Source: a bacterium (GTDB taxonomy: Bacteria; Patescibacteriota; Minisyncoccia; Phycocordibacterales; UBA6899). Taken from it: 64,000 nucleotides of DNA. The notes beneath the pieces are model-generated. The model was given only the letters and a program-made list of their open reading frames with translations. It ran no database searches and was not told the DNA's origin. Both the position numbers and the translations under genes were made by a program. This document shows, piece by piece, positions 4,221 through 59,081 of this stretch (positions are counted from its first letter, which is position 1; each line of letters starts with the position of its first letter). The stretch lies in contig JAJZQJ010000005.1 of the NCBI GenBank assembly GCA_021851895.1, positions 14,572-78,571 of the forward strand, given 5' to 3'.

Positions 4221-4261
4221 TCTTTCGCATTTTTACGAATTTTACACAACAAAAAACCGCA

Positions 4262-4520
4262 GAATTTGGGATACAGGTTGCCATGCTGGAGGCATGCGCC
4301 GTCAGCTCACATCAATATTTTCATTCGCAAAGCTCTGAAAATATTGTGTGGCTCCTGGCCGGGCTCGTCGGTCCTCGCATGAGTACTGCTGCGGGCCTGA
4401 CTCCGCCTTGCTCAGCGGAAAATGTTACACATTTTCTTTATCGCTTCGCACTCAAACAAGGCGTACTTGAAGTACGTTGAGTGAGTCGCATGTCGAAGCA
4501 TGGCAAGATGTGCCAAAATA
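4262..4520. repeat. Structured intergenic repeat family, copy 1 (long variant, ~260 nt)
   Basis: Terminal inverted arms caggttgccatgct (4275-4288) and agcatggcaagatg (4498-4511), with outer atttgg/ccaaaat. Shares the conserved 3' core cgtac-loop-gtacg + gagtcgcatg + gaagcatgg with copies at 26.0, 26.3, 58.2 and 59.0 kb. Several internal perfect hairpins. Confidence 0.5.
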
Positions 4521-4529
4521 TGAGGTTTA

Positions 4530-4754
4530 TTAGATATCGCGCACTTCGTGATCCGGATGCTTCTTCATCATCAACATCGCCGCAAGATACAACAACACCC
4601 CCGGAATGATGCCACTAAAGATCGCAAGCACGATATACCCCACGCGAAGGATGCCAGGATTCACTTCGAGCCAATCACCGAGGCCGGCAAAGACACCACC
4701 AGCAACATGTCGTTCGCCTTTCGTATGCCTATATAGCTTTCTCATAACATACAT
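4530..4754 (-). CDS. PspC-domain protein (74 aa)
   Basis: ...RHVAGGVFAGLGDWLEVNPGILRVGYIVLAI... matches the PspC domain pattern and is followed by a TM helix. Confidence 0.55.
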   Translation of the reverse strand: MYVMRKLYRHTKGERHVAGGVFAGLGDWLEVNPGILRVGYIVLAIFSGIIPGVLLYLAAMLMMKKHPDHEVRDI

Positions 4755-26013: not shown

Positions 26014-26040
26014 TAAATTTCCCCCCTCGGGGGATTTTTA
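26014..26040 (+). terminator. Rho-independent terminator
   Basis: aaatttcccccc-tc-gggggattttt. Confidence 0.6.
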
Positions 26041-26046
26041 ATTGTC

Positions 26047-26167
26047 GGTTGGTAATTTTGGCGCGGCTTGCCGCGCTTCAACATACGCCTCACTCGCCGT
26101 ATCAGCATATGGCTCATTAGAGTTCGCATGTCTCCAGCGCGACAATCGGCATCCAAAATAACCAACC
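26047..26167. repeat. Structured intergenic repeat family, copy 4
   Basis: Perfect 15-bp terminal inverted repeat ggttggtaattttgg ... ccaaaataaccaacc. The interior contains gagttcgcatgtc (compare gagtcgcatgtc in copy 1). Confidence 0.45.
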
Positions 26168-26239
26168 TCTGAGCTTTGGTTCTTGCCACGTTATTTTGTA
26201 TTTCGAAAAACTCGCCAATTTAAGTTTCCTAAAATCAAA

Positions 26240-26345
26240 AAGACTTCAGAATTTAGATGAAATCATGCCGGTTGGAACCCAGCAAACTCTAGCAAGGCGT
26301 ATAGGTTATACGGCGAACGAGTCATGTGGTGAAATAAGTCAAAGT
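26240..26345. repeat. Structured intergenic repeat family, copy 5
   Basis: gaatttagatgaaatcatgccggttgg ... caaactctagcaaggcgtataggttatacggcgaacgagtcatgtggtgaaataag. Collinear with copy 3; the hairpin cgtata/tatacg versus ccgtac/gtacgg shows compensatory change. Confidence 0.45.
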
Positions 26346-26353
26346 TCGCCAAA

Positions 26354-26878
26354 TCATGAAGTCTTGAATTGTTTCGCGATCGCAGCGCCAAAAGCAGCTG
26401 CCGATGCTGGACCATCGGCAGTGATGACCCTCCCATCGATCACGACGCTTTCGGCAACATAAGTTGCTCCATTTCCTGACAAGATATCCCCAAGCTGCCG
26501 ATCGCCGTTCCACCCCGTCGCACGCACGCCTTCGAGCACATGTGATTTTGCAAGGACTCTGGTAGAGATACAAATGGACCCGTAGGCCATATTCGGAAGT
26601 GCTTTGACCTCAGCAAGGAAACGATACATCGTTGTATTATCCAAAGACCTCAACGCACCCGGTCCTCCGATTAGATAGATGCCATCGACTGCACTCGGTG
26701 AAAGTTCATCGATACTCATATCGACGACCACATGCTCGTTGATATTTGAAATCGCTCCACCACGATGCATAGAGAGCGTGATGACCTTATGACCCGCACT
26801 CTCGAGCACGTGTTTCGTATCGTTGTATTCCTTGCTTTGAAAACCTTCCTCAGCGATGATCAATGCTATGGTTGCCAT
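26354..26878 (-). CDS. DJ-1/PfpI-family protein
   Basis: Start at MATIALIIAEEGF. Class-I glutamine amidotransferase-like fold motifs with the nucleophile-region Cys AYGSICIS. A TATACT hexamer lies just upstream of the ATG. Confidence 0.6.
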   Translation of the reverse strand: MATIALIIAEEGFQSKEYNDTKHVLESAGHKVITLSMHRGGAISNINEHVVVDMSIDELSPSAVDGIYLIGGPGALRSLDNTTMYRFLAEVKALPNMAYGSICISTRVLAKSHVLEGVRATGWNGDRQLGDILSGNGATYVAESVVIDGRVITADGPASAAAFGAAIAKQFKTS

Positions 26879-26946
26879 GAGTATAGTATAACATATGATC
26901 CAAAAGAAAAGTGCCCTCTTTTTCGGAGGGCACGGAATGAACTTCT

Positions 26947-29721
26947 TTACATCGGTTCCGGCAAAATGCTCCGGAAATCGACGTGACGATCCTTTTCGAT
27001 CTGATCCTTCAACCACGACGTAGGGCAATACGTGAGGATGGTGGGACCGTAGTCACACCCCGCCGCAGAAAGCGACGTGAAGACACCAGCATTATGCACA
27101 CGAGCGAAACCGTGGATACTGAACGGATCCTCTGTCGCTGCGGTACCCGACATCACGCCGAGATAACCCGGAGCGAAGATCGCAGCCGCTTTGTGCTTAT
27201 CGCCATAGAACTCGACGATCGATTGCACGCCACGGAAGATTCCGTTGTAATTCCCACGCTGGAGCGCATTGTTCGCGGCCTCAGCGAGACCGAAACCATT
27301 CGCTGCACCATAGCGCGCCGGGCTTCCCCGGAGCGCTATTCCGAACTCGACATCATTGCCCATATCGAGTCGAGCGAGACCGAGTGCGTCCTGGCCATGA
27401 ATCGGTGCTCCGACGAGCGGAGAGCATTCAGCAAGAAGCTCAGGACGATACGCGACGGAAACATACTGCAAAAGATGCGGCTTCATGATCTCGGAGGCAA
27501 TGAAGCCCTCGGAGATGATGCTCTCACCACGAATACCCGAATTCTTCCAGTGATTGCCGTTACCGAAAGCGATCACGGTGAGATCACGAGAATCCTTTAT
27601 GGTACCGAGCACCTCGCTCGCAGGAACGAATCTTGCCGAAGAGTTACAATACGCCTCCACAACACTACCGAGCACATCAGCGTTCGGAATGAGCGTCATG
27701 TAGAGCAACTTCTTGATCTGCTCTTCGGGACGATAGCTCGCCCCCTTCTGCACCTGATCGATGAGAAGATCCCACTGCTCCTTATTCTGCTTCCGCAACT
27801 CCCGAACACTGCTCGAAGTGGACGCCTCCTCGACCTTCTCCTTTCGGATACGCTCGAGGGCGGGCACGGAGAGCTTGTGCTCGTGCGGCTGCAAATAATA
27901 GGGATGATTTGCGCCGTGGCTCAAATCATCAGGGATGAAGTACGCATGCACACGTCCCTTCCCATGATGCTCACGCATGATGTGGAAAATAGCTCCTGTG
28001 AGGTCGAAGAGACCATACTTCGGGGAGCGCACATGCCACTCCCAAGCGTGCCCCACATGGAGGTCACTGGTCAGCATGATCGTGAAATACTTCTCACGAA
28101 TCGACTCGATCTCCTTGCGGCGGGCGCTCAGCATGCCGCCGAGATACCGGAGCGTACTGATCCGATACGACGACACGCGGACGAGACCCTCGCGCAAACT
28201 GAGCGCGAACATGCCGGGCTCAAGAAGTGACTCGCGGAAGAACTGCTCCACCGGAGTACGTTTTTCGAGCATGGCTTCTCGCTCGAGATGTGCGCGCACG
28301 TGCTGTACGTCACAAGTCGGTGGCGGAGTGCACACATAGACGAAACGCGGCTTGTCCGCACACGTGTCATTGAGCAGCGTCACCGCCCCATAGAGAGACC
28401 AGCGGTTTGCAAGGATCTCGACATCCGCAAGCTCACCAGAAAGCGTCAGCTTTTGAAGGTGATTGCGCATTTCGGAATCAAGGAGTTTCGCACTCCTCTT
28501 ATCCCAACCTGCCTCACTCACACGCCAAGTCTTCTTTTTGTGGCCGAAGACCGCCTGTCCACTCCCGACATAGAGTGCTCCGGGAATGGCATCGAGCAGT
28601 TTCTGCACGATGTAATCGTGCAGTCGCTTGTACGCCCGACGGCGATTATCCTTGGAGACGTAAGTCTGCAACGTACGTGCGATCTGATCATCGATCGCAG
28701 CCAACTGGTCCTTGAAGTCGCGGTTCTCGGGATCGGCCTTGATCAACGCGTTCTTTCGAGCACGTTCATCATTAAGACGCTTCACCTCTCGCAGTACGTT
28801 GTACCTGATCTCATAATGCGCACATCGATCGATGAGCTCGCGCTCGCCAGAGGTGAGCATGAGGTAGATCGGCGTGCTGAAACGAGGGGTGACCCCAGAC
28901 TTGCTCGTATCCCTGAAGACCTTCTTGATCCCCGAAAGGAGATTCTCGAGATCCTCGGCGAAGGTCGTGAAAATGGGCGTATCCGGCTCATCCTTCATCA
29001 GAGACTCGACGCGACGACGATAGGCCATCGGAAAGACCTGGGGGTCGATGTCGAGCGAGCTCATACGAGCGATGCTGTTTGCCGTCGCGGCACTTGCCTG
29101 ACGAACGTCCAGGTGGAGCAAGCCACCACAGATGACGACGGCGTATTTGCCGCGGCTTGCGACCTCCATCGCGCAACGCGGAACGAGCTGTGTCATTCGC
29201 GCGTCATAAGGAAGACCGAACATCAGCGACTGCAGAGGGACGATACCCTCGAGCGAGTCAGGAATGACGATCGGTTTCTCGAGCGACGACGAGAGCACGG
29301 GCACTTCAGGAACGGACTGACCGTCCGGAATGACCCGAAAAAGTCCATGCACATGTGCGGGTGGGTTCTTCGGAAGTCCCCTTCCGCGCATCCACCGCAT
29401 CTTCGCCCGAAGGAGCGACAACGGCAGAGTACTGAAATACTTCGCGATGTTCTCCTCGGGCTCTTCGTTTTTGTAGTGCGCCTCGAGCAATTTCGTGCGC
29501 TCCTTCGTCCACACGAGCGCGCCGAGGTGTTCTTGTACGGCAGACTTCGTGAAAGGAAATTCCTTCGAGAAGAGACGTACAAGATCAGGGCGACTCGCGA
29601 TGGCCGCATGCAACGCATTGGCAGGATGATCGTCCCTCAACGTACCGACCGAAATCGCACGCTGAATGAACGAGAGCAGCTTCTTCGACTTCCAGGGATC
29701 GACTGGCTTCTTCGTAGACAT
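26947..29721 (-). CDS. Large hypothetical protein (924 aa) with possible degenerate metallophosphoesterase motifs
   Basis: Long uninterrupted ORF. The C-terminal half has D-x-H (TSDLHVGH), FIPDDLSHG and GNGNHW, reminiscent of calcineurin-like phosphoesterase motifs I-III. The N-terminal ~550 aa has no recognisable family. Confidence 0.5.
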   Translation of the reverse strand: MSTKKPVDPWKSKKLLSFIQRAISVGTLRDDHPANALHAAIASRPDLVRLFSKEFPFTKSAVQEHLGALVWTKERTKLLEAHYKNEEPEENIAKYFSTLPLSLLRAKMRWMRGRGLPKNPPAHVHGLFRVIPDGQSVPEVPVLSSSLEKPIVIPDSLEGIVPLQSLMFGLPYDARMTQLVPRCAMEVASRGKYAVVICGGLLHLDVRQASAATANSIARMSSLDIDPQVFPMAYRRRVESLMKDEPDTPIFTTFAEDLENLLSGIKKVFRDTSKSGVTPRFSTPIYLMLTSGERELIDRCAHYEIRYNVLREVKRLNDERARKNALIKADPENRDFKDQLAAIDDQIARTLQTYVSKDNRRRAYKRLHDYIVQKLLDAIPGALYVGSGQAVFGHKKKTWRVSEAGWDKRSAKLLDSEMRNHLQKLTLSGELADVEILANRWSLYGAVTLLNDTCADKPRFVYVCTPPPTCDVQHVRAHLEREAMLEKRTPVEQFFRESLLEPGMFALSLREGLVRVSSYRISTLRYLGGMLSARRKEIESIREKYFTIMLTSDLHVGHAWEWHVRSPKYGLFDLTGAIFHIMREHHGKGRVHAYFIPDDLSHGANHPYYLQPHEHKLSVPALERIRKEKVEEASTSSSVRELRKQNKEQWDLLIDQVQKGASYRPEEQIKKLLYMTLIPNADVLGSVVEAYCNSSARFVPASEVLGTIKDSRDLTVIAFGNGNHWKNSGIRGESIISEGFIASEIMKPHLLQYVSVAYRPELLAECSPLVGAPIHGQDALGLARLDMGNDVEFGIALRGSPARYGAANGFGLAEAANNALQRGNYNGIFRGVQSIVEFYGDKHKAAAIFAPGYLGVMSGTAATEDPFSIHGFARVHNAGVFTSLSAAGCDYGPTILTYCPTSWLKDQIEKDRHVDFRSILPEPM

Positions 29722-30522: not shown

Positions 30523-30545
30523 CGCTGCACCATAACACAAGATGA

Positions 30546-30580
30546 GGGAATAGGGAATAGGGTATAGGGAATAGGGAAAT
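30546..30580. repeat. Heptamer tandem array (GGGAATA)x5, family A
   Basis: gggaata gggaata gggtata gggaata gggaaat. Exact inverted partner at 30679-30713. Confidence 0.85.
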
Positions 30581-30678: not shown

Positions 30679-30713
30679 CCCTATACCCTATTCCCTATTC
30701 CCTATTCCCTGGT
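30679..30713. repeat. Heptamer tandem array (CCCTATT)x5, complement of family A
   Basis: ccctata ccctatt ccctatt ccctatt ccctggt. Ends at a TATTAT hexamer 6 nt before the hisS ATG. Confidence 0.85.
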
Positions 30714-36482: not shown

Positions 36483-37646
36483 TTAGAACGTTGGGGTTGC
36501 CACGTAAATGAGATTCGTGTGGTAATCCGTCGCTGCCTCCTGGAGTGGGCTGATCTCAGTCTTGTAGTAGACAGTTGTCGTACCAAAGCCCTGACCGATA
36601 CCCGCTGTCGAAGATGCATTTCCGAACACAGATACTGGCGTTCCGCGAACGAAATCACCGGTATAGAGCTGTCCGCCAAATGAGTAGATACCACCCTGTG
36701 GGATCGCAGCGTCATCAGATGACACACCGATATGGCCCCATGTCGTATCATCGTTCACATTAGCGAGCGGTGCTGCCCATGCAGCTGGAGCTGATGCTGA
36801 GAATCCATCGATGATCGCACCATTCTGTGACTGGAATGGCTGATCAGAGACGACCGTAACATTGAAGCCCTGACGAGCATTGGTCTTCACCTGGAGTTCC
36901 TGTGCAGCAGTTTGTGCAACATTCACTGGGAGAATACCGTAATTGATTGTCGTAGTGCTCGAGTCTGTCGTGATCGCACCATACGTCGTTGGTGTCGTAC
37001 TTGCAACACCCGAGATAGTGAAATCAAAGATTGGATCAACCTGTGCGATAACATCAACATTCTCGACCAATGCAACGCGAATACGTGTCGACTGATTCGA
37101 TGTTATGTTGAAGAGCTCGATCATGTAATTCGCAGCCGTAGGTGTCGATGGCTGTGGATTCAAGATCATGTTGCCTGCAGTGTTACCGAGAGTGACCGTA
37201 TACACCGTAGAGGATGACATGACGCCATGACCTGCACACGGAGTAAGATCAACTTGGTCTGCAACCGCGACCGCAGAGAAATCGTCGGTTCCACAAGTTG
37301 CACCTACTGTCTTTCCAGCAACCGTGATGTCCGCAGCAGTCAATGTACTTGCGTCAAAGTTTGATGCATCCGGATTCGGATAGAACTTGAAGCTGAGTGC
37401 AGTACCTTCTGGAATATCGACCTTCGGCTGGAATACGAACTTGTGCGTAGAATACTGATTCAATGCACCAGTAGTGATACGCGCGTTGTTCAACGTATCG
37501 CTAACGTTTTGGATTGCGATTGTCATCGCAGATGCAGTGTGTGCTGCAAAGATCGCAGAAACCGTACTGATAACCATGAGAACACTGAGGAAAGCAGTGA
37601 ATGCCTTCTGTTCTCTGAAGTAAGCAAACAAATTTTTGTAATTCAT
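36483..37646 (-). CDS. Secreted Ig-like surface protein, paralog A, with C-terminal ...NLIYVATPTF domain
   Basis: Start at MNYKNLFAYFREQKAF plus a signal peptide. 55-60% identical to the 38026 gene. The C-terminal ~200 aa is homologous to the C-terminus of the 1788-aa protein. Confidence 0.55.
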   Translation of the reverse strand: MNYKNLFAYFREQKAFTAFLSVLMVISTVSAIFAAHTASAMTIAIQNVSDTLNNARITTGALNQYSTHKFVFQPKVDIPEGTALSFKFYPNPDASNFDASTLTAADITVAGKTVGATCGTDDFSAVAVADQVDLTPCAGHGVMSSSTVYTVTLGNTAGNMILNPQPSTPTAANYMIELFNITSNQSTRIRVALVENVDVIAQVDPIFDFTISGVASTTPTTYGAITTDSSTTTINYGILPVNVAQTAAQELQVKTNARQGFNVTVVSDQPFQSQNGAIIDGFSASAPAAWAAPLANVNDDTTWGHIGVSSDDAAIPQGGIYSFGGQLYTGDFVRGTPVSVFGNASSTAGIGQGFGTTTVYYKTEISPLQEAATDYHTNLIYVATPTF

Positions 37647-38025
37647 AAGAACTATACAAGCAGCGTTATGGGACACTGCTTAGGCGAATAAGCGTGGGCG
37701 CAAAAGTGTAATCGCAAATGCAAATACACCAGTGCTTTGGCGTTTTTCGACGACGCCATGGAAAGTGGAAAACCCGCAAACCTATGCGCCCCAGCGGATA
37801 CATACATCTACTGGCGGAGGATTTCCTCCTACTTGTAATTATACTACATATGTGAACAACTTACTGATAAACCTGTGGACAAGTACTAAAAGTGAATGCA
37901 TAGCATGGGGATAACACCTGCTCATCTACGTTGACGATCGGAAATAAGATGAAACCTCCCCCACCTGAACGGGAAAAACGCCCCCGTAGGGACGTTTTCT
38001 CCGTTTGCTTTCTTTAGGATTATGA

Positions 38026-39210
38026 TCAGAACGTCGGTGTAGCGACGTAGATGAGATTCGTGTGATAATCGGTTGCAGCCTCCTGAAGTGGAGTGACTTC
38101 CGATCGGTAGAAGACCGTAGTCGTACCAAGACCAACACCGAAACCTGCGGTCGACGACGCATTACCGAAGACAGACACAGGGATTCCCCGGACGAAGTCT
38201 CCGGTCCAATGGTCGCCACTAAGCGCCGCAGATCCAGGAATGTCCGCGTCATCACTCGAAACTGCGATGTGCCCCCAAGTCGTATCATCGCCAAGCAATG
38301 CTGCTGGTGCTGCATATGCCGTCGGTGCCCCTACAGTTGCAGGGAAACCATCGATGATCGCGCCGTTTGAAGACTGGAATGGCTGATCCGCAACGACGGT
38401 GACATTAAAGCCCGTCTTTGCATTCGTAATGACACGAAGTTCCTGCGCAGCAGTCTCCGGTGTGTTCACTGGGAATGCACCATAGGCGATGGTCGAGGTG
38501 GATGAGTCGATCGTAATCGGCTTACCATCGATCGTCGTACTACTTGCAACCCCTGATACTGTGAAATCAAATGCGGGATCAACAGATGCAGAAACCAAGA
38601 CACTGCTCACCAGTGCGACCAGGGTCGATGTGAACTGATTCGATGGACCAGCGATGTCTACCTGATAGGTGTATGCATCATACTGAGCTCCAGGTGCCGG
38701 GTTCGCGACCAGATGACGAGTCGAACTGCCGAACGTTACCGAAAATGGCGACGTCGAAGCGATCGTATTTCCTGGGCAGACTGAAAGTGCAAGCACGGAT
38801 GCACCTGGCGTGAAAGAGTAGTTCTCGCTGCCCGTACAGCTTGCGCCAACGATCTTGCCAGGAACATTCACGTCGAGCGCATCGATACCCGATGCATCGA
38901 AATTCGTTCCCGTATTCCCTCTTCCCATGCTTGCGTCATCAGCACGGAAAGTGAACGTGAGCGACTGACCCGCAGTGACATCGACCTTTGGCGTCAAGAC
39001 AAAGGTGTGTGCAGACGAATAGGTCGTCCCCGCCGTAGATAAACGCGCATTACTCAATGTGTCCGTCACATTGCCAAATGCGAGATATGCAGCCGAAGCG
39101 ACATGCGCCTCAAACGCAGCTGCAGATGAACCTATGATCACAATAATAGACAGAAAAGCGGAAAACGCCTTCTGCTCCCTAAAGAAAGCAAGGGATTGTG
39201 AATATTTCAT
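38026..39210 (-). CDS. Secreted Ig-like surface protein, paralog B
   Basis: Start at MKYSQSLAFFREQKAF. Tandem duplicate of the 36483 gene including a ~350-nt upstream region. Confidence 0.55.
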   Translation of the reverse strand: MKYSQSLAFFREQKAFSAFLSIIVIIGSSAAAFEAHVASAAYLAFGNVTDTLSNARLSTAGTTYSSAHTFVLTPKVDVTAGQSLTFTFRADDASMGRGNTGTNFDASGIDALDVNVPGKIVGASCTGSENYSFTPGASVLALSVCPGNTIASTSPFSVTFGSSTRHLVANPAPGAQYDAYTYQVDIAGPSNQFTSTLVALVSSVLVSASVDPAFDFTVSGVASSTTIDGKPITIDSSTSTIAYGAFPVNTPETAAQELRVITNAKTGFNVTVVADQPFQSSNGAIIDGFPATVGAPTAYAAPAALLGDDTTWGHIAVSSDDADIPGSAALSGDHWTGDFVRGIPVSVFGNASSTAGFGVGLGTTTVFYRSEVTPLQEAATDYHTNLIYVATPTF

Positions 39211-39471
39211 TAAAAACAAGTTAAACAGCGTTATGGGACACTGTTTAAACGTATAAGTGGGCGCAAAAGTGTGCCGAGTGGCACGCTGCGAGGCATCGAC
39301 AGATGCCGAAAGTGGAAAACCCGCTGCTTATGCGCACAAGAAGATCATTCGATCGACTTGTGGAGGACGGCCTCCTACATGCAATTATACTACAGATGTG
39401 AATAAATATGTGTATAAATATGTGGACAACACACAAAAAAACTGCACAACCTGTGGATAGGTCGCGCAGTA

Positions 39472-40590
39472 TCATCTTGATATCTTTTGAATGCGCACAA
39501 ATGATCCATCATGGGAGCTCGAGAGTACAGAAATAAGCGTCCCTACGGTGACGATGAGCAGAAGCAGTCCTGCGATAAATGGAATGATGAGCAAACGTGC
39601 GCTCATAACTCGTAGTGCGACTTGCCCATCGAACTCCCCTCCCACTTTCTCTAAATCATCACGCAATTTCCTCACTGCATACGCAAAGAACTTGATCGCA
39701 CCGCCCAATATGATGATCATAAGCACGATGGCCCGCCAAGGCAGCACAAGAAAGAATGTGCGGTCCGCAACAAGATGTGCATTATTCTCGCCGTAATTCA
39801 ATTCAACATGGGCATTCCAAAGACCAAAGTCAAATATTCCGAGTGACCCCTTCCAGTCATACTCAACATTCCTCTTTGATCCTGGAATGATCGTTCCCGG
39901 TGCAAGCGTATTATCAAGTACATAGCGCCCACGCTCGACACCGAACATATTTCGTATGACCACTGACCCCTCTGGACGAAGGTGCGTATCTCCATCATTT
40001 TTTAATTCAAGAGAGAACGTCCCCTGTGCACCTGCAGAGATCAGCGCCTCCCTTGTGAAGGAGAGAATGGTCAACTGCTCTTTCGTCTCACCAGGCACGG
40101 TGAGAAAATTGAGCATATTCAGTCGTTCTCTCGCAGAACCGCTACTCGACTCGAGCTCAAAGACCACCGATCGTCCGCCAGGATTTGCATCACTTGGCAC
40201 TGATATCGAAAAAGGAACGCGAAGTGATTTGTGCGCGGGAACGATCAACGGACCATCAGGTAATGAGAACCAACCCGATGCTCGAACAGGGTCATCTTTA
40301 TCTGGAACGCCCTCCATTTCGCGCACACCACCCGCACCATCTACGGGAACAAAATCGGCCACAAGCACATCGAGTGCTATCGACTCTTCACCTGTATTTT
40401 TTAGTGTAAAAAATGATTTGAATTGGCCGCCACGCTCAACTGAGATACGAAGGATCGCCGGCTCAACTGAAAAGCCTTCCAAAGGCACCGCAGCCGACGC
40501 TTCGATCGACAACGGGAGAAAAAGCCAAAAGACCATTGCGATAAGCATGGTCTTCTCGTATCTCTTTAGTTGCTCGAAAATATACAGCAT
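39472..40590 (-). CDS. Secreted beta-rich protein with C-terminal TM anchors
   Basis: Signal peptide, ~250-aa ectodomain and two C-terminal TM helices. Confidence 0.45.
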   Translation of the reverse strand: MLYIFEQLKRYEKTMLIAMVFWLFLPLSIEASAAVPLEGFSVEPAILRISVERGGQFKSFFTLKNTGEESIALDVLVADFVPVDGAGGVREMEGVPDKDDPVRASGWFSLPDGPLIVPAHKSLRVPFSISVPSDANPGGRSVVFELESSSGSARERLNMLNFLTVPGETKEQLTILSFTREALISAGAQGTFSLELKNDGDTHLRPEGSVVIRNMFGVERGRYVLDNTLAPGTIIPGSKRNVEYDWKGSLGIFDFGLWNAHVELNYGENNAHLVADRTFFLVLPWRAIVLMIIILGGAIKFFAYAVRKLRDDLEKVGGEFDGQVALRVMSARLLIIPFIAGLLLLIVTVGTLISVLSSSHDGSFVRIQKISR

Positions 40591-40596
40591 GCCGAA

Positions 40597-41874
40597 TTAA
40601 CGCAATCGAATGATGTGTTCTTCGGGAACAACGCGAACCTTCTGCTCGAGTTGCACTGCATAATGAGCAGGAGGAACAGTACGCACGCGGGGAGGAATGT
40701 TCACCTCAGTCAAGCCACTGATGACACTCTCTTCAAGCACATCTTCGAGGCGGTGTCGCTTACCCCTAAATAGGTGGCCGAGTCTCTTGAACATACTCTC
40801 GTCATCCACGTCCTTTTCATCGACATGTCGTTCATGCGGTTCTTCGTCTTCTTCGGCGACTTCAGCATAAGCATACGATGGACGCGCGAGGTCACGGCCG
40901 CGAGCGAGCATCGCGAACAGCACGATAAGCACCACGAACACCGAACCGAAACCGATCATCTTTGACCATGGTATGACCCAAAAATAAACGACATCTTGCA
41001 TCGTACCGCGCTGCCCATAGCTCATATCGAGCATGGCTTTATATTTCCCGAAATGCCCCCCTGCTGCCCAAGTAGCAGCAAGCAACGCTTTCCCTTTTGG
41101 CTCGACTTCTTTGCCATCAGTGTTCACGTCGACCATACCAACTTCCTTGCCCGTATTGTCGAATATTCTTATCTTTCCATTCGGAGTCAATGCACGATTA
41201 CCTGTATTCTCTACAGAAAAACTGAAGTTCGCTTGTGGATTTATGAATATATTCTTCGCAGCAGCAAAAGAAAATAATTGCAACTTCTCGCGAATGTCTT
41301 CAGTTACCTCGATATTCATCAGCACTTCTTGTGTACATGCTGTACACTTCTGCGCGTCAAACTGCGTCGGACCAGATGCGAATTTTATGGCAACATGATA
41401 ATTCCCCGGCTTTGCCCGGGCAGGTATCTGCATCTGAAATGGAATGGTTTGTTCTTCTTTCGGAAGAAGATTAATAGAGCGAGGTATCTCGATCCAGCGT
41501 GATGGGCTTGAGTCTAATGGGTTAGCATTCAAGCCACTCATATCGCGATTCGAGAGGTCGCCTTTCATGTCATCAACATCGACAACCCAAACGAAAAGCG
41601 TCGACACACCCTGACCAGTGGTCTGTACTGTTATATTATGATGACTTATCTCACGAACTTTTCCTTTCGTATCAATGACCTTCGGAGTCACCTCAAAGTT
41701 CGCAGCATAGACAGAGAATGGTAATACAAAACACCCAAAAAACAGGGCAATAACAGGCCAAACTGCTTTGCGTGTGTGTATGTTCACTACATATATAGTA
41801 TACACTGGAAATAGTCGAATTATGCTTACTTTTCCACAGAAAATCATGATTTTCGGGCGACAAAAGAACGACAC
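40597..41874 (-). CDS. Secreted beta-rich protein with TM anchor and acidic tail
   Basis: Same architecture as the preceding gene. Start uncertain. Confidence 0.45.
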   Translation of the reverse strand: MSFFCRPKIMIFCGKVSIIRLFPVYTIYVVNIHTRKAVWPVIALFFGCFVLPFSVYAANFEVTPKVIDTKGKVREISHHNITVQTTGQGVSTLFVWVVDVDDMKGDLSNRDMSGLNANPLDSSPSRWIEIPRSINLLPKEEQTIPFQMQIPARAKPGNYHVAIKFASGPTQFDAQKCTACTQEVLMNIEVTEDIREKLQLFSFAAAKNIFINPQANFSFSVENTGNRALTPNGKIRIFDNTGKEVGMVDVNTDGKEVEPKGKALLAATWAAGGHFGKYKAMLDMSYGQRGTMQDVVYFWVIPWSKMIGFGSVFVVLIVLFAMLARGRDLARPSYAYAEVAEEDEEPHERHVDEKDVDDESMFKRLGHLFRGKRHRLEDVLEESVISGLTEVNIPPRVRTVPPAHYAVQLEQKVRVVPEEHIIRLR

Positions 41875-41908
41875 TCATTGGTGTCGCTCTTTTGATCAAA
41901 ACACTCTA

Positions 41909-44900
41909 TTAATAGACAGGGGTGATCACGTAGATAATGTTCGTACTATATGTGCCAGGCGGAGTGCCTGCATGCGGCTCTATCTTATAGACGACATCAA
42001 CAGTCTCACTCCCCGTTGTTGGGAGATCTGAATAACCAACTTCCGATGGAGTGCTCGTCGCGAATTCAGCCCAAGAATCATTCGGGGCGAATCTGTCTGG
42101 TATCCCCGTCGGACTCAACGTATGATCAGATGTGTGATAACCGATACAACCTGCACTCGCTGCAGGACACCCCGTAGACCAAGGTACCGGTGCGGAATTT
42201 GGTGCACCAATGATCGATGGCAGCTTATCTCCATAAGCGTCGAGCAAATCCCCTTCTGCCTGCATCGTCACCTGATACCCCATCATAGCATTCGTCGTTA
42301 TGTGCAATTGATGCGCAAGCACGGCGACCGAATCCATCGTGAGCATGCCAAATGGAGTTGTTGTTGCCGTTGTTGTACCTGTCGTTACTGAGCCATCGAT
42401 GGTGACGCCTGCATTTACTCCACTAACGAGGCCGTCGACAGTCGCTCCCTCCGCAACGACTGACGGATAAGACGCGGCACTCTTCTCGAGCGGTACATTC
42501 CGATTCACGTCATAGAGGCGGAAAAAATACGTCTGACCGGTGCGTTCTCGCATCGAGGTTATTGTATACTCCATTTCAGTATTACTACCCGCTGCAGGAG
42601 AGAATGTCGACGTACTCGTTGCTTCATTGTGCCTTCCCAGTGTTGTGCCTGTGAGGGTTTGAACCGAAAGATTCGTATCATCAGGTCCTACTCCATACGC
42701 ATAGCAAAACGTACTTGTCGCCATACAATCATTCTGCAGATCAGCGAAATGCACCCCTGAACTGAACGTTGGGTCCTCCGACCACTGCACTGCGAAGCGT
42801 TCATTCGATCCCGATTCATTTGCAACATCTTGAAGCGCGGCACGCAGCTTGAATATAGTCTTATTCGCCACACCTGATGGTGCAATCTCTACACCTGCCC
42901 CCAAGAATGGTTGCCAATTGACCTCATTTGCGTAATCATCAACGAAACGCCAAGATGATATCTCTGGTGTATACCCTGCAGTACGTATGACCGGATAGAA
43001 GTCGTAACCAAACAATGGTTTGCCGCCATCCTCTACTACACGAAAACAGTAATCAGAATCCTTAAGCGCATTATTTCGTTTCAATGCCCAATCATATTCG
43101 ATATAATCACCCGTCTCACTCGTATTCGCCGGATTCGGATTCAACGCGGTGAGTCCATCTTCCGAATAGAGCTCGGGAACATGCCCGATTGCGACCGCAA
43201 CGAGCGCAGAAGGAATGCTTGTTCCGCTTGATAGGCCAGCATTGTGATATCCCGACCAATCGCCACTTGCATTCACATCCATCCAGCTTGCAGATGGGAT
43301 GGCGCTACAAGAACCAGAAGTGCGTAATGCGGACTGCAATTGAAAGGCGCGATCGGCTATTGGCATCGTTGAAGTGCTTACTGCAAGTGCGATACGCAAA
43401 CGCACGCTATCACTCTTACGCACAGGGCGATTAAGCGCGGTCATCTCCTGATCATCTCCGAGTGGATTTGGCGACCCAAGATACCAAGAATCCGTAGGAG
43501 TTAGTGCGCCGTTATCGGTATAGATACGGAAACCGGCTTGCGTGAACGTCGCGCGACGCACCTGCTGATGCTCTTCGTAAGTGATCGTAAACACATTACT
43601 GAAATTGGTATAATCGACCGCGGTCGACTTTGCATTACGCACAAGCATCGAGATCGTACTGCTTGGCATCGTCCCACTCCCCCAAAGATCAGTCGCGAGC
43701 ACAGGCTGCAACATGGTTGTATTGTATGGATACGAAGTCGCAGGACCCGCCTCGGTAGTTACGGTCCCCGCACCGCCCACTGCAGAAATAAATGCACCTC
43801 TTGTGATCGTTGTTGCCGCACCGTGTGCGATATACGTCTCAAGTTCTGCGGCACGAAAAGTCGTATCGACATCACGAGCGAGATCGATCGAAAACGGATA
43901 TGTTGTTGTCGCTATCGCCGTACTCGGAGCATATTGCTGTGGTGCCACATACGAGAGACTTCTCGCTTGTGTACCCCCATGACTTCCATCCCAAACGTAC
44001 GTGATAAGTAATTCTGCGGTTGCAGGGACCGAAGCCGTGACGAAATTGATGTTCGCGCTGATCGCAGTCCCTGAGGTCGCGTAAGATCCAACAAGCGAAG
44101 AGAGATCATGGATGATATACGTCTCTCCTCCACCACGATTGGTCATCGTTCCTGTCGTGTATGTTTGACTCAAACTTGATGCCCCTACGGTTCCTCCAAT
44201 TTGTGCCGAAAGCGAACTATGCGGTGAGTAGCGCACACGCAACCACATATTCTGTACTTGCGCTGACTGCATAGGAAGTATTGGTGTAAATGTACCAATA
44301 GTTGTTGCAACTCCAACAGTAGGCGCGGTCGCGAGCTGTCCGAGCGGATAGGACAACGTCTCCGATTGCTGATTCGAACGACTTGAATACGCGTAGGTTA
44401 CGACGATCTCTCCACCCGTCTGCGCCAAAATGACTTTGTTGTTGCTCGATGATACTGCGATAGTATTCGGCGTATTGATCTGAAAATCATTCACCCCAAT
44501 GGGCATACCCCAGAACAACCGAAGACCAGTAGAATCCAATGAGGTTTCCGTTGGACTAAATGTCACACTCGAACCTGCAGTATGACCTACGGTGACCGTA
44601 TATGCACGCTGGTTCGCACTTCCCGCGGAATTTGCGAGCGTCGTGATCTCTGCATGCACATCAAGAATATTCGCAGTGTCGTTATTCAAAAGATCCGCAA
44701 TCGTCGCGTTGTAATTAAAATCACAACCCTTCACCGCACAAACCGAAGTGATCGATCCTGAGTCACCTGCGACCGTAGAATCGAGCGGAAACCGCACCGT
44801 CTTGACTCCAACCATCGGATTCAAAGAATATGAGGTCTCATACGTAACAACCAATTTCGCGGTTGTGAGTGCACGTGTTGGACCTGTCGAGGAAAGAGCG

Positions 44901-47275
44901 ACACCCACGTTCACACCATTATTGAGCGCCGCACTCGACTGACCGATGAACAAACGTGTTGCATCGATTTGCGAGTGATAATAGTTCGTGACCGTACTTC
45001 CACCACCGGCGATCTGATTCATCGGCGCAACGTAAAGTTGAATGCCTTGAGCGTCACCAGAGAGTGAACCAGTGATATCACCAGTCACGGTGAGGCCCGT
45101 AAGTGCAACGACATTTGTCGAAGAAAATGAGAGGTCGACATATGCATTAACGACCTTTGCATCATCACCGAGCAATTTCACGAGCATGCCTGCCGGCTTC
45201 GCTGTCCCCCAAGTTGCGCCAGCGTACGAATACACTCCACTCGCTGCAGTCGCTTGATAGGTTCCGCCGCCGAGCATGAACTCCGCAGTACGCATTTGCT
45301 TTGGTTTTGGCACGAATGCGACAGGCGCGGCGGCCGAATAGGTGAGCACAACGACATTCGCGAAATACGTATAGTTCGCGGACACATCGACACTCTCTTC
45401 GATCGCAAATGGATAACGTTCACCCGAAAGATCGGATGTCGCACCGATATCGCTCGGCGTAAATCTTGCATAGAAACGTTCCGCGAATGGATACGTACCG
45501 CCCGTACCACCAACTTCCGCGATCGAAAGTGCATTTGCTGTCGTCGATGTGCCGAAGCCGATGTGTACTCCAGAAGAGATGGTGATCGCTGCAGTGTTCG
45601 AATGACCGAAATGCACTTCAAGAAAACCATCTTCAAATGTTTTTTGCGCACGCTCAGGGAGAAAGAGTATCGCATGGCGCACCTTATCCACCGTACCCAC
45701 ATTTCGACCAACCGCAGGCAAAGAGGCGGCATATGTCGCGGTCTTCGTCTGTGCGCTCGTCGGAGAATAGGTCCAGGAGAACGTCGTTACCACCTCAATA
45801 GCGACAGGAGATCCCCCTGCCCCACTGAATGCGAATGTTCCCCCAACAGGAGTCGATGCTGAAAACGAGAGACTCTCTGGAGTCAAACTGTGAATGACGA
45901 CCGGTGAATTCGCTGAACGTCGCGCGGTCGACGGAGCAGGAAATTGGTAGACCTGACTTGTACCACTTGTACCGTTCACACTATGGGTCACCGTCAAATT
46001 CGTCGCTGCAGTAAACACCGGAGCAAGGCTCATACGATACCAAGCCTTCTCAACGACAGGAGCATCGTTCGCTATGGCGATATTCGTCGTTGAGATTGGA
46101 ACACTCGCACCAGCTGCAGGAGATGCGGTCTCTTGATCAGAAAAATATCTTATCGTCTCTGTTTGCGTCGTTGCTGTTGGGTTGAATTTATACGTGATCA
46201 CCACCTCACCACCAGTTGCATAAAGTGCCGCACCTCCAGCGGTGTTCACAAGATTCAGTGTATGTAGCGTGTTCGCGCGAAGGTCAGAACCACCGATAGG
46301 TAGCGCACCCCAAAGCACGCGAGTCTCATGTGTATCGGCGACCGCTTCGTTCCATGCATAAAGTGGAGAAGCGGTTCCCCCAGAGAACTGGAGGCGAAAT
46401 GTTGAATTCACCGTGCCTGCGTGATATGCATAGAACTCGATGTGTGCATCGAGGATGTTCGCATCCGCCGAAAGATCGCGGATAACATTCGTGTCGAAGG
46501 TGAAAGGACATGTTGCACCAGCAGCACAAACCGTTGTACGCGTACCAGTATTTCCTGCAACTCCAGTTGATGCGAGTGGAAGATGCACAGACTTCACGAG
46601 ATACGGCAAGGTTCGATCGATATCCACCTCATAGGTGATCGACAATTTTGCAGTAGTCAACGCCCTGTTTCCCGCGCTCAATGTTGGAGCAACTCCAACA
46701 AGCACATGAACACCCGAATTGAAGGCGGAGTCTGATTGCGTAGCAAAGAAACTCGTGACGTCATTCACCGTCCTCAAGTAACCCGTACCGCCCGCCATGA
46801 TCGCAAGAGGGATAGTACCATTTGCACCGTTCACGGGCACATCAGTACCCTGAGTGCCCGAACCTTCGACATCCATGAAAATCCTATTCTCTGTAACTGA
46901 GGCAGCTGCGGTATATGGATACTCATACGAGACATCAAGCTGTGCGCTGAGCACATGGACGCCAGTCCCAAGCAAGGTGACCACGTCGCCACCTGTTGTA
47001 AGCGTCGGCTTTGTCGTCGACCATGCAGTCGCGCCCGCATAAGCCATTACCCCACTCGCACGCACGGTATTGTCCGACCCACCGCCGAGCACGAATTCCG
47101 CCGTACGCAATTCTTTGCCGAATGCCGTCGCAGAAGCCTCTGCATGACGGACACCAAACGTTCCAAGCATGAGGAAGAAAGCATCGACGCCACCCATGCT
47201 GACCAAAAACAACGCGACGAGAAGTGTCGTCGTGAGTATTTTCATAGAAAAAGTTCTCGCGTTGTTTATGGTCAT
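41909..47275 (-). CDS. Giant (1788 aa) Thr/Ser/Gly-rich cell-surface protein
   Basis: Signal peptide (possibly from M11, 47245). Internal ~600-aa repeat (TAEFVLGGGS.../TAEFMLGGGT...). C-terminal domain shared with the 36483/38026 proteins, ending NIIYVITPVY. Confidence 0.6.
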   Translation of the reverse strand: MTINNARTFSMKILTTTLLVALFLVSMGGVDAFFLMLGTFGVRHAEASATAFGKELRTAEFVLGGGSDNTVRASGVMAYAGATAWSTTKPTLTTGGDVVTLLGTGVHVLSAQLDVSYEYPYTAAASVTENRIFMDVEGSGTQGTDVPVNGANGTIPLAIMAGGTGYLRTVNDVTSFFATQSDSAFNSGVHVLVGVAPTLSAGNRALTTAKLSITYEVDIDRTLPYLVKSVHLPLASTGVAGNTGTRTTVCAAGATCPFTFDTNVIRDLSADANILDAHIEFYAYHAGTVNSTFRLQFSGGTASPLYAWNEAVADTHETRVLWGALPIGGSDLRANTLHTLNLVNTAGGAALYATGGEVVITYKFNPTATTQTETIRYFSDQETASPAAGASVPISTTNIAIANDAPVVEKAWYRMSLAPVFTAATNLTVTHSVNGTSGTSQVYQFPAPSTARRSANSPVVIHSLTPESLSFSASTPVGGTFAFSGAGGSPVAIEVVTTFSWTYSPTSAQTKTATYAASLPAVGRNVGTVDKVRHAILFLPERAQKTFEDGFLEVHFGHSNTAAITISSGVHIGFGTSTTANALSIAEVGGTGGTYPFAERFYARFTPSDIGATSDLSGERYPFAIEESVDVSANYTYFANVVVLTYSAAAPVAFVPKPKQMRTAEFMLGGGTYQATAASGVYSYAGATWGTAKPAGMLVKLLGDDAKVVNAYVDLSFSSTNVVALTGLTVTGDITGSLSGDAQGIQLYVAPMNQIAGGGSTVTNYYHSQIDATRLFIGQSSAALNNGVNVGVALSSTGPTRALTTAKLVVTYETSYSLNPMVGVKTVRFPLDSTVAGDSGSITSVCAVKGCDFNYNATIADLLNNDTANILDVHAEITTLANSAGSANQRAYTVTVGHTAGSSVTFSPTETSLDSTGLRLFWGMPIGVNDFQINTPNTIAVSSSNNKVILAQTGGEIVVTYAYSSRSNQQSETLSYPLGQLATAPTVGVATTIGTFTPILPMQSAQVQNMWLRVRYSPHSSLSAQIGGTVGASSLSQTYTTGTMTNRGGGETYIIHDLSSLVGSYATSGTAISANINFVTASVPATAELLITYVWDGSHGGTQARSLSYVAPQQYAPSTAIATTTYPFSIDLARDVDTTFRAAELETYIAHGAATTITRGAFISAVGGAGTVTTEAGPATSYPYNTTMLQPVLATDLWGSGTMPSSTISMLVRNAKSTAVDYTNFSNVFTITYEEHQQVRRATFTQAGFRIYTDNGALTPTDSWYLGSPNPLGDDQEMTALNRPVRKSDSVRLRIALAVSTSTMPIADRAFQLQSALRTSGSCSAIPSASWMDVNASGDWSGYHNAGLSSGTSIPSALVAVAIGHVPELYSEDGLTALNPNPANTSETGDYIEYDWALKRNNALKDSDYCFRVVEDGGKPLFGYDFYPVIRTAGYTPEISSWRFVDDYANEVNWQPFLGAGVEIAPSGVANKTIFKLRAALQDVANESGSNERFAVQWSEDPTFSSGVHFADLQNDCMATSTFCYAYGVGPDDTNLSVQTLTGTTLGRHNEATSTSTFSPAAGSNTEMEYTITSMRERTGQTYFFRLYDVNRNVPLEKSAASYPSVVAEGATVDGLVSGVNAGVTIDGSVTTGTTTATTTPFGMLTMDSVAVLAHQLHITTNAMMGYQVTMQAEGDLLDAYGDKLPSIIGAPNSAPVPWSTGCPAASAGCIGYHTSDHTLSPTGIPDRFAPNDSWAEFATSTPSEVGYSDLPTTGSETVDVVYKIEPHAGTPPGTYSTNIIYVITPVY

Positions 47276-47279
47276 TTTT

Positions 47280-49472: not shown

Positions 49473-49531
49473 TACGGACCACGATGGGCAGCCACCCATC
49501 AATGATCACCATAAGGACGATTGCATATGGG

Positions 49532-54487: not shown

Positions 54488-54489
54488 AA

Positions 54490-54517
54490 GTAAGAAGTAA
54501 GAAGTAAGAAGTAAGAA
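54490..54517. repeat. Heptamer tandem array (GTAAGAA)x4, family B, abutting the pheT ATG
   Basis: cat-aa-gtaagaa gtaagaa gtaagaa gtaagaa ggttgaa. Inverted partner at 54926-54957. Confidence 0.85.
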
Positions 54518-54537
54518 GGTTGAAATACCTATCTTTC

Positions 54538-54888
54538 TTACTCATTCGGATAAGTTCCACAAAGCGAATAAAGCATTTTGGCGAGCTCGCCAAGAAGGGA
54601 TTCTAGTTCTGAAATATTCTCAACATAGCCTAGGCGATGGGCAATCTCGAGCTGAGTTTCAACTTCAGCCACCGACCCAAGCGCAATCGAATAAAATCTC
54701 TGTCTATCTTTTTGAGTATTTCGCCTATAGCCTTCTGCAATATTTGATGGCGCTGAAATCGCAGCTCTCTGAATTTGAGAACTCAAAGCATATTGCTCAT
54801 TTTTTGGAAATGTACTTGTCAGTTTATACACAAGCACAACCATATTCATGGACTTCTGCCACACGATCAAATCTTTATAACCATTCAT
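54538..54888 (-). CDS. Four-helix-bundle protein of the 23S rRNA intervening-sequence protein family (PF05635/TIGR02436-like)
   Basis: DLIVWQKSMNMVVLVYKLTSTFPKNEQYALSSQIQRAAISAPSNIAEGYRR...FYSIALGSVAEVETQLEIAHRLGY matches the hallmark pattern of this family. Flanked by inverted heptamer arrays. Confidence 0.75.
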   Translation of the reverse strand: MNGYKDLIVWQKSMNMVVLVYKLTSTFPKNEQYALSSQIQRAAISAPSNIAEGYRRNTQKDRQRFYSIALGSVAEVETQLEIAHRLGYVENISELESLLGELAKMLYSLCGTYPNE

Positions 54889-54902: not shown

Positions 54903-54957
54903 GAGTGAAGTAGTTGTGAGAATTTCCTTCCCACTTCTCACTTCTTACTTCTCACTA
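54903..54957. repeat. Heptamer array (ACTTCTC/ACTTCTT)x3-4 plus inward GTGAGAA units, complement of family B, beginning at the pheS stop codon
   Basis: gtgaagtagttgtgagaa-tttccttccc-acttctc acttctt acttctc act. On the minus transcript this reads TAG-TGAGAAG-TAAGAAG-TGAGAAG-TGGGAAG. Confidence 0.8.
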
Positions 54958-57209: not shown

Positions 57210-57467
57210 TTTCATGTCGCGATGCCGCGCACCCCAGAGGGGCCCCGCACGGCCCTGCTCCTCGATCTCCTTACAGGAGCTGTACACCTTTTGGATCTTT
57301 TGTTTCGAAGACTCACAAAAGTTCTCAAAAGGTCTTGCGCTCTCGCTCCCATAAGAATAGGGCCCATGAGCGAGAGCTCACCCACAGTGCTCGACGGAAT
57401 CCTTTTGCGGCAAAAGGATTCCTGCTCTCCTAGACGGGGAAGGTACCCCTTCCCCGACCCCCTTCCA

Positions 57468-57486
57468 TTCAAGCCTGACAGGTGGC
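57468..57486 (+). repeat. Inverted 19-nt copy of the tRNA-Thr T-arm and acceptor 3' strand
   Basis: ttcaagcctgacaggtggc is the exact reverse complement of 57529-57547. The two copies flank the tRNA terminator hairpin. Confidence 0.6.
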
Positions 57487-57493
57487 CCAAAAA

Positions 57494-57523
57494 CAAAAAC
57501 CCCCTTGCGGGGGTTTTATGTTT
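57494..57523 (-). terminator. Rho-independent terminator of tRNA-Thr
   Basis: aaaaccccc-ttgc-gggggtttt followed by atgttttt. The hairpin is symmetric. Confidence 0.6.
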
Positions 57524-57524
57524 T

Positions 57525-57600
57525 TGGAGCCACCTGTCAGGCTTGAACTGACGACCTACGGTTTACAAAACCGTTGCTCTACCAACTGAGCTAAGGTGGC
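57525..57600 (-). tRNA. tRNA-Thr (anticodon UGU), CCA encoded
   Basis: Reverse complement reads GCCACCTTAGCTCAGTTGGTAGAGCAACGGTTTTGTAAACCGTAGGTCGTCAGTTCAAGCCTGACAGGTGGCTCCA. 7-bp acceptor, D-arm GCTC/GAGC, anticodon loop TTTGTAA, T-loop TTCAAGC. Confidence 0.85.
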
Positions 57601-58111: not shown

Positions 58112-58152
58112 ATTTTTTTCCCCTCTTAGATGTGCAACACACTAAGAATGAG

Positions 58153-58262: not shown

Positions 58263-58270
58263 CCATTCAG

Positions 58271-59074: not shown

Positions 59075-59081
59075 CTAAAAA

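Follow-up and report, generated by a model that had tools for sequence, protein, structure and literature searches.

The window analysed here is a 64,000-nucleotide (nt) stretch of contig JAJZQJ010000005.1 (assembly GCA_021851895.1), and the subject of our study is a family of structured repeats lying between its genes. The original prediction, made from the letters alone, had described at least five copies of a hairpin-forming element, headed by a "copy 1, long variant" at 4262-4520, and had proposed either a structured RNA or a transposable element of the miniature inverted-repeat type (MITE). We find a previously uncatalogued family of structured intergenic repeat with two unusual properties: it is placed antisense against the stop codons of neighbouring genes, and it is conserved much as transfer RNA (tRNA) genes are. 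The EF-Ts protein encoded in the window is 97% identical to that of a Candidatus Paceibacterota metagenome-assembled genome (GCA_035583355.1) and 73% identical to that of Candidatus Lloydbacteria; the host is a bacterium of the candidate phyla radiation (CPR).

A covariance model built from the copies designated c2, c4 and c5 (R1), run unfiltered on both strands of the window, recovered exactly five members at the predicted places and no sixth, with scores of 120.5 bits for c5, 117.9 for c4, 108.6 for c2 and 31.1 for c3, and of 24.0 for c1, of which it found the 3' half. A gapped core pattern of 21 bases matched the window three times against 0.00 expected. Repeat finding linked 4447-4506, 26283-26342, 58188-58247 and 58997-59056 as direct repeats and returned 26108-26154 as an inverted copy of 58969-59015. 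The window paralogues are 62-73% identical to one another. The copies and their neighbours are listed below, with scores from R1 and from model R2.

4255-4527, plus strand: c1; R1 24 bits and R2 33.4 bits, both on the 3' half only
4255-4261 (AACCGCA) and 4521-4527 (TGAGGTT), plus strand: closing stem P0 of c1
4262-4298 and 4449-4520, plus strand: 5' and 3' halves of c1
4299-4448, plus strand: insertion of ~150 nt, splitting c1 after stem P3 (GGCATGCG) and before the conserved (A)ACUC box
4530-4754, minus strand: PspC gene; c1 ends 2 nt before its stop codon
25722-26012, plus strand: RRM-protein gene (Pfam RRM_1), faced by the 3' end of c2
26015-26037: small terminator of the RRM-protein gene, between that gene and c2
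26040-26174, core 26052-26162, minus strand: c2; R1 108.6 and R2 110.0 bits; closing stem GGTTGGT/ACCAACC
26235-26370, core 26248-26357, plus strand: c3, degenerate; R1 31.1 and R2 64.7 bits; closing stem GACTTC/GAAGTC
26354-27028, minus strand: DJ-1/PfpI gene, its stop codon (26354-26356) overlapped by the 3' end of c3
57650-58111, minus strand: gene whose start codon lies 41 nt from the 5' end of c4
58140-58274, core 58152-58263, plus strand: c4; R1 117.9 and R2 115.0 bits
58271-58870, minus strand: tsf, its stop codon 8 nt from the 3' end of c4
58948-59084, core 58961-59072, plus strand: c5, in the rpsB-tsf spacer; R1 120.5 and R2 117.7 bits; closing stem TAGCG/CGCTA
59082-59852, minus strand: rpsB (Pfam Ribosomal_S2), its stop codon 10 nt from the 3' end of c5

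The strings quoted in the original prediction were all located where it had placed them (CAGGTTGCCATGCT at 4274-4287, AGCATGGCAAGATG at 4497-4510), and the caatattttca/tgaaaatattg hairpin, the cgtacttgaagtacg hairpin, GAGTCGCATG and GAAGCATGG are likewise present. The compensated arm changes are also real: gccatgc/gcatggc in c1 and c4 becomes gccgtgc/gcacggt in c5, and cgtata/tatacg in c3 becomes ccgtac/gtacgg in c5. Two of the listed copies need qualification. The one at 26047-26167 was correctly located but lies on the minus strand, which had gone unremarked, and the one at 26240-26345 is a genuine but degenerate member: c3 retains the conserved AACUCUAGC..GAACGAGUC box, with stems P2 and P3 broken.

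The description of copy 1 as a long variant did not survive. Judged against its orthologues, c1 is an ordinary family member broken by a private, lineage-specific insertion and no structural variant, because copies at the same site elsewhere are of the plain 112-nt form and align with it once the insert is removed. The PspC site is occupied in four genomes, and those represented by our comparison loci L036, L039 and L040 carry the plain form; c1 minus 4299-4448 aligns end to end with all three and has site-specific signatures in common with L039 and L040. The "perfect local hairpins" remarked upon within copy 1 belong to this insert and are foreign to the family. The insert itself is hairpin-rich on both strands (fold z = -4.7 on plus, -4.4 on minus), has no match in Rfam and, by blastn, no second occurrence among all sequences compared. 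With part of its tandem G.A box also missing, c1 may be decaying.

A rod-shaped fold on the antisense strand

The element is an unbranched, rod-shaped hairpin with a core of 112 nt, or ~136 nt when its closing stem is included. That closing stem, P0, lies outside the core in every copy and consists of 5-9 pairs whose sequence is not conserved. Read 5' to 3' on the folded strand, the core begins with P1 (AUUUUGG / CCAAAAU), followed by a three-pair U.G-G-C stem with a fixed U.G, beside a G.A-containing loop. P2, of ~10 pairs, leads through an asymmetric internal loop (GGA / GA) to P3, of 8-9 pairs, and both stems are free in sequence. There follows the conserved box CGAACUCUA-RY-GA ... GA-RY-GAGUCG, comprising a UA bulge, two covarying pairs and tandem G.A, and the rod is capped by P4, a hairpin of seven free-sequence pairs with a 5-nt loop. 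The whole is thus a set of three conserved purine-rich internal loops held between stems that covary freely, and in an alignment of 22 copies the invariant columns lie chiefly in the internal loops and not at the termini. A kink-turn was considered for the conserved box and ruled out: between the UA bulge and the tandem G.A stand two covarying pairs.

Covariation was tested on a MAFFT alignment (A10) of the 22 copies with 12-nt flanks, against a structure of 49 pairs. Standard pairs occupy 92.1% of cells, compared with 72% in shuffles and 34-43% after sliding the partners 1-3 columns out of register; double-sided changes occur at 40 of the 49 pairs, and none of 500 shuffles attained any of five measures. 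Pairing continues into the flanks, where 7.85 of 14 positions pair in 14-nt flanks against 5.47 in shuffles. The proposal that base pairing is under selection is therefore borne out, by covariation among paralogues and among orthologues alike. Two wobbles are fixed, U.G at columns 25/116 and G.U at columns 64/82; in c4 a C.A replaces the former, a substitution that we judge to be isosteric.

One defined strand has been selected to fold, as follows from its G:U excess, its purine loops, its fold energies and the changes between orthologues. In the core stems G:U outnumbers A:C by 84 to 6, or by ~48 to 6 once the two fixed wobble positions are set aside, and purines make up 77% of the unpaired positions. 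Each of the four intact copies in the window has a fold 8-19 kcal/mol more stable than that of its reverse complement, irrespective of genomic strand (c2, -61.8 against -47.6 kcal/mol; c4, -58.6 against -49.2; c5, -69.0 against -49.9), and model scores are 110-142 bits on the folded strand against 29-40 on the opposite one. Substitutions between orthologues comprise ~9 exchanges between G:U and Watson-Crick pairs and two double changes, against a single exchange between A:C and Watson-Crick; the L034 orthologue of c5, 88% identical, shows five of the G:U kind and two double compensatory changes. The plus strand of the window is C- and A-rich and the coding strand G- and T-rich, and by our reasoning mutation bias would give the opposite G:U/A:C asymmetry. 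The selected strand is the one antisense to the neighbouring genes. The structured-RNA half of the original prediction has in this way gained a defined folded strand, as an RNA would have, and its MITE half is set aside below.

The antisense position beside a stop codon, overlooked in the original prediction, is to our mind the most telling property of the family, and all copies but one have it. With orthologous sites counted once, and with unannotated contigs given ORFs (open reading frames) of our own calling, a convergent gene has its stop codon 0-15 nt from the element's 3' end at 16-17 independent sites versus 1, a split to which our binomial estimate assigns ~1e-4. On the other side, 30-90 nt separate the element's 5' end from the start codon of the gene beyond, which is divergent. 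Occupied sites follow the genes for L31 and RF-1, rpsB, tsf, gyrB, an SLT-domain gene and the PspC gene, as well as called ORFs, and the neighbours (the core genes for L31 and RF-1, rpsB, tsf and gyrB, with PspC and others) stand in an order conserved between genomes.

Distribution, conservation and history

Copies outside the window came from loci around EF-Ts and cyclophilin homologues, from one scan of a genome collection and from one metagenome scan, and ~30 further copies were found in related Paceibacteria and CPR contigs. In the genome collection, which covers 185,579 species, a 22-base pattern hit one contig only (L006, with Saccharibacteria in its title), which has two copies, and a looser 21-base pattern hit 25 metagenome contigs, 8 of which hold true members. 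Phage and plasmid collections gave no family match; one pattern match in the viral collection proved to be chance. Site occupancy persists to 73-77% EF-Ts identity, with an element after tsf in L003, and weaker, divergent relatives occupy the same site types in the Lloydbacteria-like L004 and L041 and in L042 (after rpsB and L31 in L041, after gyrB in L042). The element makes up ~1-2% of the sequence examined. Since the loci examined hold ~1 copy per 5-13 kb, extrapolation suggests tens of copies per genome.

Conservation at orthologous sites is striking when set against silent codon positions. Among the window, L033, L034 and L001, four-fold sites are 39-58% identical in tsf and 60-70% in rpsB. 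Orthologues at the tsf site are 96.4% (L033), 94.6% (L034) and, in a third comparison, 98.2% identical, the four-fold sites of tsf being 39-45% identical in the comparison of c4 with L033 and L034; orthologues at the L31 and RF-1 sites are 99.1% and 96.4% identical. The element is thus conserved as first and second codon positions are, and because this is far above silent sites we regard it as functional and not junk. By these comparisons it is under strong purifying selection, unlike a decaying selfish repeat. Conservation like that of the codon positions that determine amino acids, together with near-absolute placement, implies a function that is not easily lost.

Occupancy nevertheless differs at four sites among the window, L033, L034 and L001, and at a fifth, after trmA, between the window and L036. 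Element-free spacers have unrelated sequences, often with an ordinary small terminator in them, so that no insertion boundaries or footprints could be defined at empty sites. A single site may carry different stem sets (L036 versus the window, L039 and L040; L027 versus L001), and the rpsB-site copy of L033 has acquired P3-P4 of the neighbouring tsf-site copy. Taken together, the differences in occupancy, the changes of stem set and the takeover of P3-P4 suggest loss and gene conversion between copies, not transposition. The family is old and mostly vertically inherited in Paceibacteria.

Just upstream of some intact copies there are also fragments of the element's 5' end (for example CAGAATTTTG and CAAAATCTGG) or a degenerate second copy, which suggest former tandem copies or partial duplications. 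They lie at the following places:

L036 11040-11130: 5' fragments or second copy
L027 ~420-470: 5' fragments or second copy
L034 5547-5655: 5' fragments or second copy

Candidate functions and related families

Any account of the element has to accommodate what is established, namely the family itself, its fold, its covariation, its strand asymmetry, its rule of position and orientation, and its purifying selection. The reading that we favour, and to which we give a little under an even chance, is that of a structured RNA specific to one strand, namely a small convergent RNA with a hairpin that doubles as a transcription stop. We infer that the element strand of each copy would give rise to a small non-coding transcript that converges on the upstream gene and starts in the short spacer, back to back with the downstream gene. 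The small RNA would fold into the rod, its three conserved purine-rich loops may dock a common protein partner, and the same hairpin could halt the polymerases converging from either side, as an insulator or as a terminator working in both directions.

We prefer a small RNA because of the fixed wobbles, the free acceptance of G:U, the purine loops, the closing stem that pairs the two ends (a feature of many stable RNAs) and the T-runs found at several sites. At the PspC, L31 and RF-1 sites the mRNA strand has a run of T5-6 just past the closing stem, and on the element strand a T-rich tail follows that stem at several sites.

A number of observations weigh against this interpretation. The T-runs are inconsistent, with means of 3.2 T on the element strand and 4.0 T on the mRNA strand in the 10 nt past the closing stem. 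None is present at c2, c4 or c5, which means that termination is not the universal role, and L014 and L017 likewise have none; a consensus scan, moreover, found no terminator at the window copies. Consensus scanning also detected no sigma-70-like promoter upstream of any window copy, and TANNNT upstream of 24 copies was no commoner than a rough by-hand chance estimate and showed no positional enrichment. There is indeed little room for a promoter, since the element lies so close to the next start codon; upstream of the L31-site copy, L001 and L034 share a conserved TATAAA box, which is no more than a lead. No partner protein was recognisable among the window ORFs. Tolerance of G.T and purine-rich unpaired parts have also been reported for folded single-stranded DNA (ssDNA), in the bottom strands of attC sites (PMC5027507). 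Finally, the sole sense-oriented intact copy, at L036 13070-13181, has a tRNA methyltransferase gene on one side and a conserved 26-codon ORF on the other.

That small ORF encodes a very basic product (MANKKEKQAQRQKAKRAGKTPNTRMR), occurs at 2320-2400 of the window on the plus strand and at 12972-13052 of L036 on the minus strand, and sits between genes for a tRNA U5-methyltransferase-like protein and guanylate kinase. A terminator hairpin follows it, it has no Pfam match, and the sense-oriented L036 copy lies 18 nt upstream of it.

It is tempting to speculate more broadly that the copies are genes for an unrecognised class of abundant CPR small RNAs or, alternatively, new folded-ssDNA recombination sites unrelated to integrons, a proposal that as a whole we consider possible but somewhat doubtful. 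If they were small-RNA genes of that class, each ~1-Mb genome would carry tens of paralogues evolving as tRNAs do, with invariant purine loops, paralogue-specific stems and near-invariant orthologues, every one lying antisense to the gene before it, hard by the stop codon, and acting with a dedicated protein. As RNAs they would be among the most abundant RNA families in these cells and would imply an RNA-binding partner; as folded-DNA sites they would extend structure-specific recombination past integrons. CPR genomes are tiny and densely packed and, to our knowledge, almost no non-coding RNAs have been characterised in these bacteria. A covariance model of the family would serve as an aid to the annotation of CPR genomes.

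The strongest single rival, although one that we think unlikely, is drawn by analogy with attC sites, REP/RAYT systems and the ends of IS200/IS605: the antisense strand would fold as ssDNA and be recognised by a recombinase or HUH/Y1 enzyme encoded elsewhere. In geometry attC is indeed the closest known relative. These sites are ~57-141 nt, hairpins of similar size that directly follow an ORF and whose functional fold is antisense to it; the present element abuts the 3' end of an ORF, with the antisense strand folding, at 16-17 of 17-18 independent sites. In attC, unpaired features and nucleotide skew tell the strands apart and the terminal structure is variable (PMC5027507), and here too the unpaired parts are purine-skewed and distinguish the strands, the terminal structure varies, and the arms covary with little sequence conservation between sites. 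Further support comes from the presence or absence of the element at four sites in close relatives, from the differing stem sets at one site and the inner-helix swaps in L033, which fit recombination between copies, and from the absence of target-site duplications, as in HUH and tyrosine-recombinase systems.

Against a folded-DNA site stands the absence of what defines attC, an AAC triplet within 5'-RYYYAAC-3' paired with 5'-GTTRRRY-3' (PMC5027507). None of the 22 aligned copies has the triplet or the boxes in its basal stem, which is AUUUUGG/CCAAAAU with variants CCCAAAU, CCAAAAA and CCCGAAA. Unlike attC, the element has strongly conserved internal-loop sequence, and its neighbours are housekeeping genes in conserved order, not cassettes; it is the elements that vary in presence, and the gene does not come and go with them. 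The copies are fixed in place and 95-99% conserved across lineages with near-saturated silent sites, unlike sites under recombination. For c1, c3, c4 and c5 the folded strand is, judging from GC/AT skew, the template of the leading strand and would rarely be single-stranded, and ~9% of core stem cells are G.T pairs, a share that in our view is typical of RNA helices. The 64-kb window has no recognisable integrase, HUH or Y1 transposase. The target feature of IS200/IS605 (PATE) elements, four or five conserved nucleotides immediately 5' of the left end, is missing as well, the bases before GAUUUUGG being variable (CA, UA, AA, AG) and the sequence beyond it free.

We give still less credence to a hairpin acting on the sense strand, in the 3' untranslated or intercistronic part of the mRNA, where the reverse complement would serve, like REP or ERIC, as a terminator, exonuclease barrier, RNase site or ribosome-stalling device. 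That reverse complement is certainly transcribed when the gene is read through, it begins 0-15 nt past the stop codon, and at the PspC, L31 and RF-1 sites it has the T5-6 run described above. Some element-free sites hold ordinary small terminator hairpins (L033 at site A; L001 and L035 at site D), and repeats at gene 3' ends that alter mRNA stability are well documented (PMC3184786). Selection, however, has acted on the other strand. The stems of the mRNA would contain 84 A.C mismatches against 6 G.U, its pairs are broken by orthologue substitutions ~9 times for every break on the antisense strand, its fold is 8-19 kcal/mol weaker, and pyrimidines would predominate in its conserved loops. By our reasoning, deamination of cytosines in the coding strand, which is exposed, would predict the opposite asymmetry, in agreement with the G/T excess of that strand, and the T-run is absent at c4, c5 and c2.

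A recently spread non-autonomous DNA transposon, with the palindrome as its terminal inverted repeats, is very improbable: it would explain several dispersed copies of ~110-135 bp with inverted ends, their variable presence among related genomes and the 5'-end remnants beside some of them, but the flanks beyond the conserved ends are no target-site duplications, because they are inverted complements and their direct repeats are no longer than chance (longest, 3.15 nt over 20 copies with 14-nt flanks, against 3.33, standard deviation 1.06, in shuffles); no two copies from different sites are near-identical over their full length, the old and divergent paralogues being ~60-75% identical with fully compensated stems; orthologues are conserved far above silent sites and under strong purifying selection; conservation peaks in internal loops instead of termini; empty sites show wholly different spacers without a footprint; and no transposase, integrase, reverse transcriptase or HUH protein was recognisable by Pfam among the ~60 window ORFs, many of which had no match of any kind.

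Returning to the small-RNA interpretation, the earlier view that no known RNA family fits holds at Rfam gathering thresholds and at E up to 10. Among the families of Rfam 15, which include the hammerhead, twister-sister, hatchet, pistol and hairpin ribozymes, 5S, SRP and 6S, the only gathering-level match in the window is tRNA-Thr, and at E up to 10 nothing lies over c1, with c4 and c5 attracting only a chance mir-320 match that overlaps the 5' edge of c4 by 10 nt (E 2.9; 15.1 bits against a gathering score of 55.5). Three partial resemblances were rejected: CUAGUGAG differs from the CUGAUGA core of the hammerhead, and the fold is unbranched; GAGCCGUAC..GUACGGU recalls domain V of group II introns, but the stem is not conserved (AUGGGC/GCCCAU in c4); and CGAACUC looks like a piece of 5S rRNA, of which the search returned no match. 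In the literature we found no relevant description of a CPR repeat or small RNA of this kind.

Among known repeats the closest functional analogues are ERIC and bcr1, and the features that define MITE, REP and attC elements are lacking. ERIC (IRU) of the Enterobacteriaceae, ~127 bp, is similarly an imperfect palindrome of comparable size, intergenic and often just past a gene 3' end; different species keep orthologous copies, and some variants are lengthened by internal insertions, as c1 is. ERIC is reported to fold as RNA and alter mRNA fate and is classed as a MITE with terminal inverted repeats and TA flanks (PMC3184786). In contrast, the present family has no duplications, no sequence similarity to ERIC and a host in a different phylum; its stems are free and its loops fixed, and ERIC is not reported to follow a near-absolute antisense stop-codon rule. 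The bcr1 repeat of the Bacillus cereus group (~155 bp) is, like our element, dispersed and intergenic with compensatory base changes; it is transcribed, and the changes keep an RNA-level double strand, and its flanking 5-bp direct repeats and non-conserved genomic distribution point to mobility (PMC3184786). Unlike bcr1, the family described here has no direct repeats, stands at conserved orthologous sites and is under strong purifying selection.

REP, BIME and REPIN sequences share with our element the form of extragenic palindromes at gene 3' ends. REPs are recognised as folded single strands and form compensated hairpins with roles in termination and mRNA stability, and REPIN populations are near-identical swarms around a master copy, unlike the old and divergent paralogues found here. 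According to PMC3733652, a REP is 20-40 bp with a GTAG or CGTC head; by that definition our unit, at 112-136 nt and with neither head conserved at either end of the 22-copy alignment, lies outside the class. As an analogy only, tRNA families are similar in having dispersed paralogues (tens per genome, on our extrapolation), invariant loops, covarying stems and near-invariant orthologues. The element, however, is an unbranched rod and not a cloverleaf, and it has no tRNA or Rfam match.

Other features of the window

Tandem heptamer arrays occur in pairs. At 54488-54518 (AAGTAAG)n and at 54927-54956 (CTTCTCA)n are inverted complements that bracket a gene for a "23S rRNA-intervening sequence protein" of bAvd-like type (54538-54888, minus strand; PF05635, 1.3e-38), and the arrays (AGGGAAT)n at 30545-30578 and (CCCTATT)n at 30679-30710, again inverted complements, bracket the spacer that separates hisS from a GTPase gene. 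In the third pair, (AGTGAGA)n at 62451-62488 and (TTCCCTA)n at 62576-62609, the two motif families are mixed, and each member is complementary to arrays found elsewhere in the window.

The stretch 57464-57600 contains tRNA-Thr(UGU) (57525-57600, minus strand) together with an inverted repeat of its last 23 nt. The arms, 57468-57504 and 57511-57547, are 37 nt long and 81% complementary, and they surround AAAACCCCCTTGCGGGGGTTTT (57496-57517), a GC hairpin flanked by runs of A and T.

The segments 36483-37676 and 38026-39219 are duplicated in tandem, the period being 1543 nt and the nucleotide identity 70-76%. Within the duplication lies a 397-codon gene that has no Pfam match, and the downstream spacers are partly duplicated too. 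The region 39472-49502 (including 41909-47275, minus strand) is occupied by large genes of 1788, 740, 425 and 372 codons, whose sole Pfam match is a sub-threshold PD40 in the 740-codon gene (47280-49502, minus strand). The 3' part of that same gene contains, at 49195-49252, a 58-nt alternating tract of GCGCGT type with 79% G+C.

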